Part shown: positions 42,420-48,075 of the stretch, one piece after another | Layout: each line of letters begins with the position of its first letter | Numbering within the stretch: position 1 is the stretch's first letter | Assembly (NCBI GenBank): GCA_038087875.1 | Contig: CM075995.1 | Coordinates: 6,326,001 to 6,390,000 of the forward strand | Length of the DNA: 64,000 nt | Origin: Malacoraja senta | Lineage: Eukaryota | Reading direction: 5' to 3' | Notes under the pieces: generated by a model | Told to the model about the DNA's origin: nothing | The model's input: only the letters and a program-made list of their open reading frames with translations | Database searches by the model: none | Position numbers and translations under genes: made by a program

Positions 42420-43712
42420 GAGATGATGAGGGAAGGAGAGAGAGAGTGTGAGTGAGAGGGTGTGAGAAAGAGTGACTGACTGAGGTAGGAGGAAGATAGA
42501 AAAGGATGAGTGAGTGACAGAGGTGTGGGAAAGAGGATGAGAGGGAGTGAGTGAGGGTGTGAGCGAGAGAATGAGTGTGAGTGAGTGAGAGAGTGGGTTG
42601 GGTGAGCGAGTGAGTGTGAGATAAAAGAATGTGAGTGAGAGGAAGTGTGTGAGAAAGTGAATGTGAGGGTGTGTGTGAATGAAAGGCAATGATGGGTCTG
42701 GGGATGAGTGAGTGTGTGTGTCTGAGTGTGTGAGTGGATGAGGGAGATAGTGGGTGAGTGAGTGTGTGTCTGAGTGTGAGTGGATGAGGGAGATAGTGAG
42801 TGAGTGTGGGTGAGTGAGTGATAGTGTGTGAGTTAGAGAGTGTGTGAGATAAAGTATGTGAGAGGGTGTAAGAGTGATTAAGAGTGTGTGTGAGGGTGAA
42901 TGAGTGAGTGGGAGGGAGAGAGTCAGAGGGATGAAGAGAGATAGTGTGAGAGGGAGGTAGGGAGAGGGGGTGAGTGAGAGGAAAGAGGGGAGAGGGAGGG
43001 AGTGAGTGAGTTTGCGAGAGGGAGGGAGTGAGAGAGAAGTCTGTGAGAGGAGAGGGTGAGGTGGAAAGAAGGAGGGAGGCAGAGGTAATGAGAGGGAAGG
43101 AGTGAGTGAGTGACAGTGAGTGAGAGAGCGGGGGGAGAGGAAGAGGGGGAGAGGGAAGGAGAGAGAGGTGGGGGAGGAGAGAGTGAGGAGGAGAGGAGAA
43201 AGGAGAGGAGAAGGAGGAGAGAGGGAGAGAGAGGGAGAGAGAGGGAGAGGAGTGTGTCAGAGGGTGAGAAGGAGAGGGGAGAGGGAGGAGGAGGAGAGGA
43301 GAAGTGAGGGAGAGATAGGAGAGGAGAGAGGAGTGTGTATGAGAGGGCGAGAAGGAGAGAGGAGAGGGGGGAGAGAAATGAGAGGAGGAGAGAGGGAAGT
43401 GAGAGGGATGTGAGTAAGAGGGAGGAGAGAGGGGGAGGAGAGAGGGAAGTGAGGGAGAGAAAGGAGAGAGAAGAGGGAAGTGAGAGGGAGAAAAGATGAG
43501 GAGAGGTGAGGAGGGCGAGAGGGAGAGGGGAGAGGGGAGAGGGGGAGAGAAGAGAGAGGAGAGGAGGAGAGAGGGAAGTGAGTAAGAGGGAGGAGAGGGG
43601 AGGAGGAGAGAGGGAAGTGTGAGGAGAGAAAGGAGAGTAGAGGGAGGGAGGGGTGAATGGAGGGCGAGTGAGTGAGGGAGACAGTGAGAGAGCAGGAGAG
43701 TGAGTGGGTGAG
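42420..43712. repeat. 1.3-kb GT/GA-rich low-complexity tract upstream of the promoter
   Basis: Almost C-free on the plus strand. Confidence 0.95.
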
Positions 43713-43990
43713 TACCAGCTGCGGTTCAGGCGTTCCCCGGCAGAGGCAGTGTGGAGCCTGCGTGGCGCCGGGAGCGTCCTCGCGTGGCCATTTAAAGCGC
43801 GAGGGATGTGCTTGGAGCGAGTGTGAGCGAGCGAGCGAGCGAGTCAGCGAGAGAGAGAGAGCGCGAGCCGCTGCCGCCCGCCCGCCCGCCCGCCCGCCAG
43901 CCCGGCTAACCGGCGTGTGTGTGTGTGTGTGTGTGAATGTGGGAGACTCGGGCTGCTCTGCACTCTCAACGTGACCACATTATTTTGCCC
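43713..43990 (+). promoter_or_regulatory. CpG-rich promoter/TSS region of the JARID2-like gene
   Basis: Non-TE CpG-rich patch with TATA-like catttaaag, (GAGC)n and (GCCC)n, 0.6-0.85 kb upstream of the start codon; TSS not determinable. Confidence 0.6.
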
Positions 43991-43991
43991 C

Positions 43992-43992
<1 letters not shown>

Positions 43993-44048
<56 letters not shown>
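43993..44048. repeat. (CT)n microsatellite
   Basis: Direct inspection. Confidence 0.97.
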
Positions 44049-44052
<4 letters not shown>

Positions 44053-44515
44053 CCCCCTTCCCCTCCAATGCTTTATGCTTCTGATTCAAGATGTAACTAC
44101 AAATTTGTCCTTCATTGTTAAATTTAACTTGGGTCTAAATTTCTGTTCTCTGCTGAGGGGAGGGAAAGGTTATTTTTAATTTCTTTTTTTTTTTACCTCT
44201 CCCTTTTTCCAGTCACTGACTCGACGAGCTTTTTTTGTTTTGTTTTTTTCTTTGAAGGGGAGAGAGGGGAGGGGAAGAAGAGTTCTTTTGGGGGGTTTTT
44301 TCTGGAAGGAAAAAAAATTGAATTATTTATTTATTCTCTCTTTTCCTTCCCATCCCCAACTTCGGATTTTAATCTTTCTCTCTCTCTCACACACACACAC
44401 ACAAACACAACAACAACACAAAAAAGAGAGGAGGCAGCAAGGAGAGAAAGAGGGCGAGCTTTGTAAATACAGGGTTTCTTTTTTTAATCATCCCACCTCG
44501 AGGAGATTTGATTTA

Positions 44516-44563
44516 ATGTGGAATTTTCTCCTCTTCGCAAAGAAAATTGGAACAACAGAATGA
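44516..44563 (+). promoter_or_regulatory. Upstream ORF (MWNFLLFAKKIGTTE*) whose stop overlaps the main ATG (AUGA)
   Basis: ATG 44516-18, TGA 44561-63, main ATG 44560-62. Confidence 0.6.
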
Positions 44564-44604
44564 CCAGAGAAAGACCCAAGAGGAATATAATTCACAAAAG
44601 ATTA
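44560..44604 (+). CDS. JARID2: First coding exon of a JARID2 (Jumonji)-like gene
   Basis: MTRERPKRNIIHKRL followed by a perfect GTAAGT donor (phase 0). This matches the 15-codon JARID2 exon 1 (human MSKERPKRNIIQKKY, from memory). Ortholog versus paralog unresolved; exon 2 not in window. Confidence 0.85.
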
Positions 44605-46124
44605 GTAAGTGGCTTCAGAACTTGTTTCTTGTTCGAATGGTGTTTTAAATGTTTAAATCCCGAGGAGCTTTCGAGGGGCTGGTTTGGCTGTAACATATGT
44701 GTGGTTTAAAAAAATAAATAAAACGCAAGGCTTTCCTTTTTTTTGTCGCTTTTGTCATGGTTTTTTGAGGGAAAAGCTGTTTAATCCTACCTGGTTTGTG
44801 ATTATTATATCATTATTTGTTCCTTCTCCCTTAATTTTGTAGACACAATGATTTCCTTTCATGGGTTTGTCTGAATTTGAACACCTACACACAAAAAAAA
44901 AACCCTTTCCCTTTGGTTTTGGCTGCTCGGAAAGAGAGGATGTTTGGTTTTATATATATTTGTGGGTATATATATATATTTTGGTTGCATTGGATCGAGT
45001 TATTTAATGGTTTGAGCCGGCCTCTTGTGTTGCAAAGCTTCCTTGTGTGAAGGGGAAGAGGAGAGAGGGGGGGGGGGGGGAGTGCAATCAATCCCCTCTA
45101 CACGAATACTTGCCACTGACTACTAATTTTTTTTCGGCAGCCCGTCTAGCATTCCCCTTTTCCTAATTATTTTTTAATTCCTCCCCTCCCTTTAGCATTG
45201 TTTTTGGCTCCCCATTTTGGATCTTTCCACCGCCGCCGGTCGCTTCTGCTCGCGTTAATAATGGCAACCTGCATCGTCTTGTTGTTGAACTCTTATGCCT
45301 GAGCAGGTTTCTTCTCTCCCTCTCCCTCTTTCCCAAGCAGCTGGGCAGTTTTTTTTTACCCCCATCGTTTTCCCTCCACGCAATCCCCAATTTAATGCAG
45401 GCTTTTGTGCAAGTTGCCATTTTATTTCAGACGAGTTTTTTTTGTTTTGTTGTGTGTGTGTGTTTTTGGTGATTGCCACATGGTCACGCTGTAATCTGGT
45501 TGCAATGTTTGCATTTCATCCCCCCCCCCCCCACTCTTTCTCTCCCCCCCCTTTCCAAAACCTTTTCTTCAAAGAAAAGGTTACTGTCTGCAGTTGGCGG
45601 ATGTGGACGTGAATTATTCAGGGCCTGTAGGTAAATGGGGGAGATTGCAGTAGTTTAAAAGGCTTGAATTGCAGTTTGGTTTACAAAAAAGGGTCTAGGT
45701 TTCTCATGGGTGCTCGCAGTATTTTTTTTGGAGGAGAGGAGGTCTCTTGACTCGATTAAATAAATGATCACATTCGCTACAGATGATGATGGCACTTTAT
45801 TGTCTGACTTAACTCGGTTGCATGTAATGACTTCGATTGGGACCACAATGTTCCTAACCCCCTACCAACCTTGCCAAAGGAAAACTATTCTCTTCCCTCT
45901 CCCTAAATCACCCTGGGAGAGGTTTTTATTGTCCCATCTCCATAACTTGTCAAAATTGCTGATTGCATAGAAAGCAATCCATGTGCCACACGGAAACAAA
46001 CGACTTGCAAAAAATTTTTTTTTAAGACCAAACCGGGTGCATTTTAAAAGGAACATCTGACGCATTGCAGGGTTTGCTAAAAGTTTAAATGCCTATAAAT
46101 CCCCTACAAGGCAATATAGGTTGC

Positions 46125-47530
46125 TTGCATTTAATCCGTGGCAATTGCTTTAAAGAAGAGGCCTTGCAGGGGAGGAGTGGGGGGGAGGAAAGCGTACAAG
46201 GCAATAGGCTGCGTTTAGCTTGCGTTTAATCTCTTTGCAATTGCAATAAAGGAGAAGCCTTGAAGTTTTGAATGTGGTGCGAGTGCATGATTTTTTTTTC
46301 GCAAAAAGAAAAGCAAATCGGCACAAAGTTGGGGTGTCTTTGCAAAGGACCTGATCGCCTTGCTTTTTTCCTTCCCTTCCCTCTTATCTCCTCTCTCATG
46401 GTCATAGACCCTCTGCCTGGTTGCGCTGCGGGATGGCCGAGGCTGCCGCGGGCCCTTTTGCAACAAGTCGGCGCGAGGGGAAGAGGGGCTTACATTTTTT
46501 TTAAATTCTTGCATTTAATCTTTTTGCGATTGATGTGAAAAAGAAACCTTGTCACTAAACGAAAGGGGGGTTGAATTTGTTCGCTGTATGTTGCTGGGTG
46601 CATGTTTTTTTTTACAAAAAAAACAAATTGGCAGAAAGTTGGGTGTCTGCAATCGACATTATTTCCCCTCTCATCACCCTTGTGCCTGGATGCACTCATG
46701 CAGCGGGCCCTTTTGTAACAAGTCGACGCGAAGGGGGGGGGGGGGGGTCTCGCAGTTTTTGCATGTATTTTTTTATTGCTTGCATTTAATCCTTTGCAAT
46801 TTCTTTTAAGAAGAAAACTTGCAGCAAAGCGAAAGGGGAGAAGTTTTGAATATGGTGTTGGTGCATGATGTTTATTGCAAAACAAAGCAAATTGGCAGAC
46901 AAGTTGGTGCGTCTTTGCAATGGACCTGGTCGCCTTCTTTCCTTCCCTGTATCTGTTCCCTTTTCCCCAGCTTGCACCCGGCTCAAGGGGTTTGCATTTT
47001 TTTGCTTGCATCAAATCCTTTGCAAATAGACACAAAGTTGGAGTAATTTAGCGGGTCAGGCAGCATCTCTGGAGAGAAATTGGTGGCGTTTCGGGTTGAG
47101 ACCAGTTTTAATCCTTTGCAAAATGCTTTGGAGAAGAAACCTTGCAACAAAACGAAAGGGGATAAGTTTTGAATAAATTGCTGGTGCATGGTCTTTTTGG
47201 CAAATTGGCAGAAAACTTCTTGTCTTTCAAATGGACCTGGTGGCATTGCTTCCTTCCCTGTGTCTCCTCTCCTTGCCCCTAGCGCCTGGTTGCACCCGGC
47301 TCGAGGGTTTGCATTTTTTGTGCTTGCATTTAATCCTTTGCATATGCTTTGAAGAAGAAACCTTGCAACAAAACGAAAGGGGGCTTTAATGGGTAAACGT
47401 TACTGGTGCATGGACGCCAAAAAAAAGCAAACCGGCAGAAAAGTTCGTGTCTTTGCAATGGACCTGGTGGCCTTTCTTCCTTCCCTGCATCTCCTCTCCT
47501 CGGTTGTTGCCCTGCGGGATGCAACAAGTC
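46125..47530. repeat. Degenerate tandem repeat, ~220-290-bp units, in intron 1
   Basis: Recurring gcatttaatcctttgcaa..aacgaaagggg..gtgcatg..ggcagaaagtt..gtctttgcaa.ggacctgg..cttccttccctg at ~46127 (partial), 46222, 46511, 46782, 47008/47107 and 47326. Confidence 0.8.
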
Positions 47531-47559
47531 GGCTTGAGTGGAGGGGGGGGGGAGGGGAG

Positions 47560-47939: not shown

Positions 47940-48075
47940 TTGAAATGCAATGATATGAAATGCATTGCACTGACACGCATTGCAATGAATTGCATTGGAC
48001 TGAAATTCAATGAAATGCATTGCACTGCAGTGAAACGCAATGCACTGAAATACAATGAAGTGCAATGTACTGCAT
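47940..48075. repeat. Degenerate (ATGCA/TGAAA)n pentamer repeat
   Basis: Direct inspection. Confidence 0.8.

Follow-up and report, generated by a model that had tools for sequence, protein, structure and literature searches.

A short upstream open reading frame ending on the JARID2 start codon in Malacoraja senta: likely conservation of its position in jawed vertebrates and a proposed role in leaky scanning

Introduction

The closest described relatives of the element reported here are the uORFs of the Hox genes, which are 7–21 codons long, have poor-context AUGs kept from fish to mammals, and make translation follow start-codon stringency, as related in the pertinent sections of PMC8892498. 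The uORF found immediately upstream of JARID2 in a 64,000-nucleotide stretch of Malacoraja senta DNA (hereafter the window) resembles those of Hoxa1, Hoxa9, Hoxa11 and EIF5 (Ivanov et al. 2022, PMC8892498) in being short (15 codons against 7–21), near the main AUG and equipped with a suboptimal uAUG, and like the three Hox elements it sits on a developmental regulator. As in that type, it is also AUG-started, out-of-frame and within the leader, and its uAUG is preceded by a pyrimidine at −3 and lacks a G at +4. Unlike the Hox and EIF5 uORFs, it has a stop codon that shares bases with the main AUG, and its leader of over 510 bases carries a start-stop element farther upstream.

Shared bases of the AUGA kind are also known from the TURBS systems of caliciviruses and influenza B, and from the cellular candidates SLAMF1 and GAD1 (PMC10275272, PMC5972666). 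According to the sections of these two reviews that treat the subject, a uORF that overlaps its main ORF is normally skipped through leaky scanning and does not permit re-initiation, since the 40S subunit needs distance to regain initiator tRNA, and viral coupling at AUGA or UAAUG requires a TURBS with a UGGGA motif. In contrast to the TURBS systems, the JARID2 region searched has neither the UGGGA motif 1 nor structure, and the frame that precedes the overlap is short, where theirs is a long ORF. A further likeness is offered by the ATF4 leader, as outlined in parts of PMC13338717, where a start-stop and a short uORF1 precede an overlapping uORF2; both leaders have a start-stop upstream of an out-of-frame overlapping uORF. 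In JARID2, however, the overlap is 4 bases rather than a long frame, no uORF1 equivalent in the leader was found to be conserved, and the start-stop lies 425 bases from a uATG that itself stands 44 bases before the main AUG.

The same gene also appears among the hyperconserved 5′ transcript leaders of PMC9456764 (Jarid2 row of Dataset S3), and leader elements are common to Malacoraja senta and mouse. That study tested promoter and IRES-like activity, and the passages and rows concerned make no mention of a uORF at −44. The −44 uORF of JARID2 was not found in the openly accessible literature searched, and among the papers listed only those on the start-stop appeared relevant. For JARID2, the six files of human translated-ORF tables consulted in PMC10032668 give two ORFs, both internal, and lack a uORF, with a high expression cut-off for the short-ORF set; the JARID2 sORFs of PMC4568590 are all non-leader among the files searched; JARID2 is listed in the background set only in the consulted part of PMC8892498; and eight files of PMC11685710 have no jarid2 row. 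Automated uORF lists would likely contain the JARID2 uORF if it is present in human.

JARID2 exon 1 in the window

The main frame, queried from a GTG at 44518, matched a single protein (P0001), with 100% identity over 29 residues. P0001 carries the JmjN (PF02375), ARID (PF01388), JmjC (PF02373) and C5HC2 zinc finger (PF02928) domains and, aligned over 1256 columns, shares 67% identity with mouse JARID2. Its cluster includes skate proteins named protein Jumonji, and shark and ray proteins have the same N-terminus as the JARID2 of the window. Taken together, the identity and domains of P0001, the Jumonji-named cluster, the N-terminus shared with sharks and rays and the likeness to mouse establish that the window contains exon 1 of elasmobranch JARID2, and the gene that the original prediction had called JARID2-like is JARID2.

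Protein matches and spliced contigs place the coding part of exon 1, 15 codons from the main ATG onward, at 44560..44604 on the + strand, and the splice donor of intron 1 at 44605..44610 (+), where contigs from two relatives (X17 and X19) depart from the window. Beyond 44604/5 both contigs continue as D-Y-D-D-G-I-P-W-S-E, the start of JARID2 exon 2, and the exon 1 of mouse JARID2 likewise has 45 coding bases by its coordinates. The elasmobranch N-terminus encoded at 44560–44604 is distinct, with 5 of 15 residues unlike the common bony-vertebrate form. The idea that this divergence marks a paralog was dropped, the shark and ray proteins with the same N-terminus being named protein Jumonji.

The in-frame GTG at 44518, two bases past the uATG, could conceivably begin a 14-residue N-terminal extension of JARID2 (44518–44559). 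Such a GTG-started extension is identical in nine Logan-called proteins, in which the start is the choice of the gene caller; it served here as a read-out of the leader and not as evidence for a longer JARID2.

The uORF and the leader that carries it

The uORF occupies 44516..44563 on the + strand, in frame +1 to the main ORF. Its ATG (44516–44518, at −44) opens a frame of 15 codons with the product MWNFLLFAKKIGTTE, and it ends on a TGA at 44561–44563 inside the main ATGA, such that in the GAATGA at 44558–44563 the uORF stop shares two bases with the JARID2 ATG (44560–44562). The 15-codon uORF with its stop on the main start, as predicted, can be read directly from the sequence of the window. 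From 44097 to the main start its ATG is the sole one; the context of this uATG is poor, with T at −3 and T at +4, and that of the JARID2 ATG is better, with A at both positions.

Within one sequence, this arrangement is unremarkable and no more than chance would give. When the last 60, 120 or 510 bases of the leader were put through 5000 dinucleotide shuffles, an ATG-started frame ran onto the fixed ATGA stop in 13–19%, and one of at least 15 codons did so in 5–8%. Because codon 2 of JARID2 starts with A, any open +1 frame must terminate at the ATGA; the overlap thus depends on the coding sequence and is partly a by-product of the A-initial codon 2. Residue 2 was S (243), T (34) or N (3) in all 280 JARID2 N-termini compared, residues that can all be encoded by a codon starting with A and never by one starting with G, and it was never G, A, V, D or E. 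The interest of the uORF comes from its conservation and not from its arrangement in a single sequence.

One spliced contig of X19 is colinear with the window over 44050–44605, and a contig of X17 extends 138 letters further 5′ of 44053; the RNA origin of these contigs is presumed, splicing is seen in them, and they do not map start sites. Since the X19 contig stays colinear between 44050 and the donor, the unspliced 5′ leader (44050..44559, +; X19 and X17 contigs) is at least 510 bases long and includes the uATG. The uATG therefore lies inside the transcribed JARID2 leader, and shorter forms of the leader may also occur. A G+C- and CpG-rich stretch at 43720..43910 (+) is, from its composition, the likely promoter region.

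Farther upstream in the leader lies a start-stop element, ATG TAA, at 44091..44096 (+); from it to the uATG is a distance of 425 bases, and to the main ATG one of 469. It is unchanged in four of four relatives, and the sequence around it (44085–44101) matches the mouse Jarid2 leader by eye in the 400 of 601 leader bases compared from Dataset S3 of PMC9456764. Human JARID2 has been named among start-stop genes in passages of 10.1101/2021.07.26.453809 and PMC13338717, and the element at 44091 extends this known start-stop to cartilaginous fish, with the mouse match made by eye. Two further uATGs (44068 and 44075) open frames at 44068..44179 (+) whose length is not conserved: all four relatives lack one base at 44107, which shifts the frames of both.

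Comparison with close relatives

Four relatives, from 24 listed runs, were compared with the window over 44050–44800; runs X20–X23, with a share of 0.05, do not enter the comparison. The ATG and the stop of the uORF are unchanged in all four, and the 48 bases show a single substitution, T to C at 44534 in X19, which turns F7 into L. No indels fall in these 48 bases among the rows listed for the four relatives, one 1-base insertion of X3 being unplaced. The uORF sits in a wider block, 44486..44604 (+), for which the contigs of the four relatives list a single substitution, at 44534, and no indel. The block begins 30 bases upstream of the uATG, and just 5′ of it, at 44474–44477, the relatives have four indels.

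Among the four relatives, neither the uORF nor the block around it stands out significantly from its flanks in conservation; the uORF has 1 change in 48 bases against 4 in 90 (P = 0.66) or 19 in 405 (P = 0.71), and close relatives for this reason do not settle whether the uORF is constrained. A long conserved upstream ORF was also considered, the uORF frame being open from 44180, and was rejected from the 1-, 2-, 3- and 4-base indels of the relatives at 44326–44477; this long frame is also without a Pfam match.

Position of the uORF in bony vertebrates

The evidence from bony vertebrates consists of main-frame protein read-throughs of the leader, found in gene models that start upstream, so that what is compared is residues and not codon letters. 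Among 400 proteins, 280 have the exon-1 N-terminus and 31 are extended; 15 non-elasmobranch proteins reach codon −15, and they fall into seven groups that are related rather than independent, with unnamed proteins given the taxon label of the named protein that they match best. For an ATG at −44, out of frame with JARID2, codon −15 has to encode N, H, Y or D, and codon −14 V, A, D, E or G; the window has N-V. The pair is H-E in mouse (P0295), a lizard (P0005) and a turtle-like protein (P0184), and H-V in the goby protein P0158 and in another percomorph cluster, made up of P0157 and seven further proteins.

In other words, an out-of-frame AUG is allowed at exactly −44 in five of the seven groups, at −46 in one and nowhere in one. 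Counted once each, six extensions offer 240 residue pairs, of which only 5 are compatible with such an AUG; four of those five lie at codon −15, while only 2–4 of 15 main-frame residues in the extensions match the window. P-F and H stand one codon apart between percomorphs and amniotes, yet the distance of the AUG stays at 15 codons. For the putative uAUG, the residues of all five extensions leave only U at −3 and only A or U at +4; an internal uORF stop is forced in none of the five, though possible. His may be CAC rather than CAT in each extension (50% a priori), and Ser2 may be TCN.

Two groups depart from this pattern. In a teleost type (P0140, P0185) the AUG is allowed only at −46, in the other frame; M-W-x-F-L-L-F-A is still allowed there, but the frame would not end on the ATGA. 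A galliform-like contig (P0135) has the last five residues alone in common and allows no ATG, and it may derive from another leader isoform without the uORF. Judging from what the residues permit, the uORF has likely been kept in position and in weak context across jawed vertebrates, whose split lies roughly 450 million years back. For the position and length of the uORF, the predicted jawed-vertebrate conservation appears to hold in the protein extensions of five of the seven bony groups; it fails in the teleost type with the AUG at −46 and in the bird-like contig with none. As a separate observation, the extensions of P0135 and P0184, both of sauropsid type, begin with M-R-x-E-S-x-I-T and differ in length by 19 residues.

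The uORF peptide

The original prediction also relied on the human JARID2 5′ UTR, which was presumed to hold an out-of-frame ATG with a frame of the same length, the same GAATGA overlap, F-A at positions 7–8 and a terminal E. The same length, F-A at 7–8 and E15 are indeed allowed in the three amniote extensions (mouse, lizard and turtle-like), and the two percomorph ones permit neither F-A at 7–8 nor E15. M1, L6 and T or I at position 13 are allowed in all five extensions; at positions 3, 9 and 14 the residue of the window is impossible in all five, and at residue 2 amniotes are forced to K or R where the window has W. Conservation of the peptide as a general trait accordingly fell away, with F7 replaced by L in a batoid relative, K or R against W at residue 2, and no F-A in percomorphs. 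On this comparison of permitted residues, the uORF peptide appears not to be conserved, and the pattern expected of a CPuORF, of conserved residues with synonymous changes favoured, is absent.

Leaky scanning and the rival explanations

A search for the known signals of coupled translation gave little. The + strand has no match to UGGGA from 43945 to 45837, RNA structure at 44480–44620 is no better than in shuffles (171 of 200 as good; z = 0.94), and 43500–47500 has no Rfam match. The JARID2 leader has the overlapping stop and start of such systems and lacks both TURBS motif 1 and structure.

The reading preferred here, to which we give a probability of roughly 0.6, is that the weak-context 15-codon uORF ending in the JARID2 start is an ancient leaky-scanning brake on JARID2 translation, of the Hox/eIF5 type. 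Most scanning 43S complexes would bypass the weak uAUG and initiate at JARID2. A minority would initiate at the uAUG and come to an end on the UGA overlapping the main AUG, where, with no distance in which to acquire a new initiator tRNA, they would be lost to JARID2. Output of JARID2 would thereby be capped and would track how stringently start codons are chosen, with high eIF1 giving more and high eIF5 less, and it would be the act of translation, not the peptide, that matters. Such a brake is preferred because of the bypass rule of the reviews, the absence of a TURBS or structure, and the closeness to the Hox uORFs. Of the two routes initially proposed, leaky scanning would thus be the likely one by analogy with the reviews and the Hox genes, and re-initiation is left without a TURBS motif or structure to call on.

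A rather unlikely but serious competitor holds that the AUG is a passenger, too weak for use and kept by some other constraint on the leader, such as promoter or enhancer DNA or an RNA-binding site, with the ATGA following from the A-initial codon 2. The chance expectation of 13–19% in a single sequence agrees with this, as does the fact that conservation in the four relatives begins 30 bases 5′ of the uATG and is not specific to the uORF. A constraint at the level of DNA could keep the AUG, since the mouse leader is hyperconserved and overlaps ENCODE promoter and enhancer marks, with most start-site reads internal, according to the entries consulted in PMC9456764; moreover, the translated ORFs seen in PMC10032668 include no entry for a JARID2 uORF. 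A passenger, however, would hardly account for an AUG-permitting residue pair that is nearly unique, with four of the five among 240 pairs at a single codon amid neighbouring residues that change, or for a 15-codon distance to the main AUG that survives the one-codon offset of P-F and H between percomorphs and amniotes.

It is very unlikely, in our estimation, that the uORF feeds JARID2 by coupled termination and re-initiation, its ribosomes sliding two bases forward onto the main AUG, possibly with DENR-MCTS1 or eIF2D supplying the initiator tRNA. The geometry would permit it, because the P site need move just two bases forward, and AUGA is a known stop/start arrangement (relevant sections of PMC10275272 and PMC5972666). 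The uORF is also short enough to retain initiation factors, at under the 30 codons mentioned in PMC5972666, its 15-codon length looks kept, and residue 2 never has a G-starting codon in the 280 N-termini. Nevertheless, the same + strand interval lacks UGGGA and the region lacks stable structure (z = 0.94), a weak uAUG context is odd for a feeder uORF, the overlap is broken in the teleost type with its AUG at −46, and re-initiation is doubted even for the comparable overlap of SLAMF1 in the section of PMC5972666 on it. Least credible of all is a conserved-peptide uORF whose 15 residues stall the ribosome or have a function of their own: M1, L6 and T/I13 are allowed in five of five extensions and F7, A8 and E15 in the three amniote ones, but the lone substitution among the four relatives is non-synonymous (F7 to L), positions 3, 9 and 14 are impossible in five of five, and residue 2 differs between amniotes and fish. 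A composite of several of these elements is quite unlikely as well, namely a predicted two-part sensor, kept since the origin of jawed vertebrates, in which the far start-stop would act as a gate ahead of the weak uORF, and ribosomes terminating on the uORF would drop off or slide two bases and restart.

Implications for JARID2 dosage

JARID2 recruits PRC2, and if jawed vertebrates have kept a repressive uORF on it, Polycomb dosage would be linked to start-codon stringency. Haploinsufficiency of JARID2 leads to a neurodevelopmental syndrome, as described in parts of PMC9651605 and PMC3675438. If the proposed brake is real, its 48 bases would provide a window for the interpretation of non-coding variants and a target for raising JARID2 from the intact allele. 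Should the two-part sensor prove true, Polycomb recruitment would be tunable by eIF1/eIF5, DENR-MCTS1 and stress, the locus would offer a cellular, TURBS-free case of termination and re-initiation at AUGA, and single-base changes from −44 to +4 would be candidate causes of, or remedies in, JARID2 haploinsufficiency.

Other features of the window

Several further features of the window were seen. Intron 1 of JARID2 contains a degenerate array at 46115–47550, made up of about 5–6 units of 220–385 bases that are 60–87% alike; Tandem Repeats Finder missed it, it has no Rfam match, and folding of three of its units is no stronger than that of shuffles. A CA-rich low-complexity tract of about 4 kb, at 23181–27221, shows extreme strand skew. 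Long LINE-type reverse transcriptase frames (RVT_1) occur on the − strand at 20517–22841 and 30457–32769, the latter also with an endonuclease domain, and both are ordinary repeats. An ORF of 200 codons at 18513–19115 (+) is without a Pfam match, and a short tandem array of ATGCA-rich units of 10–15 bases is found at 47941–48074.
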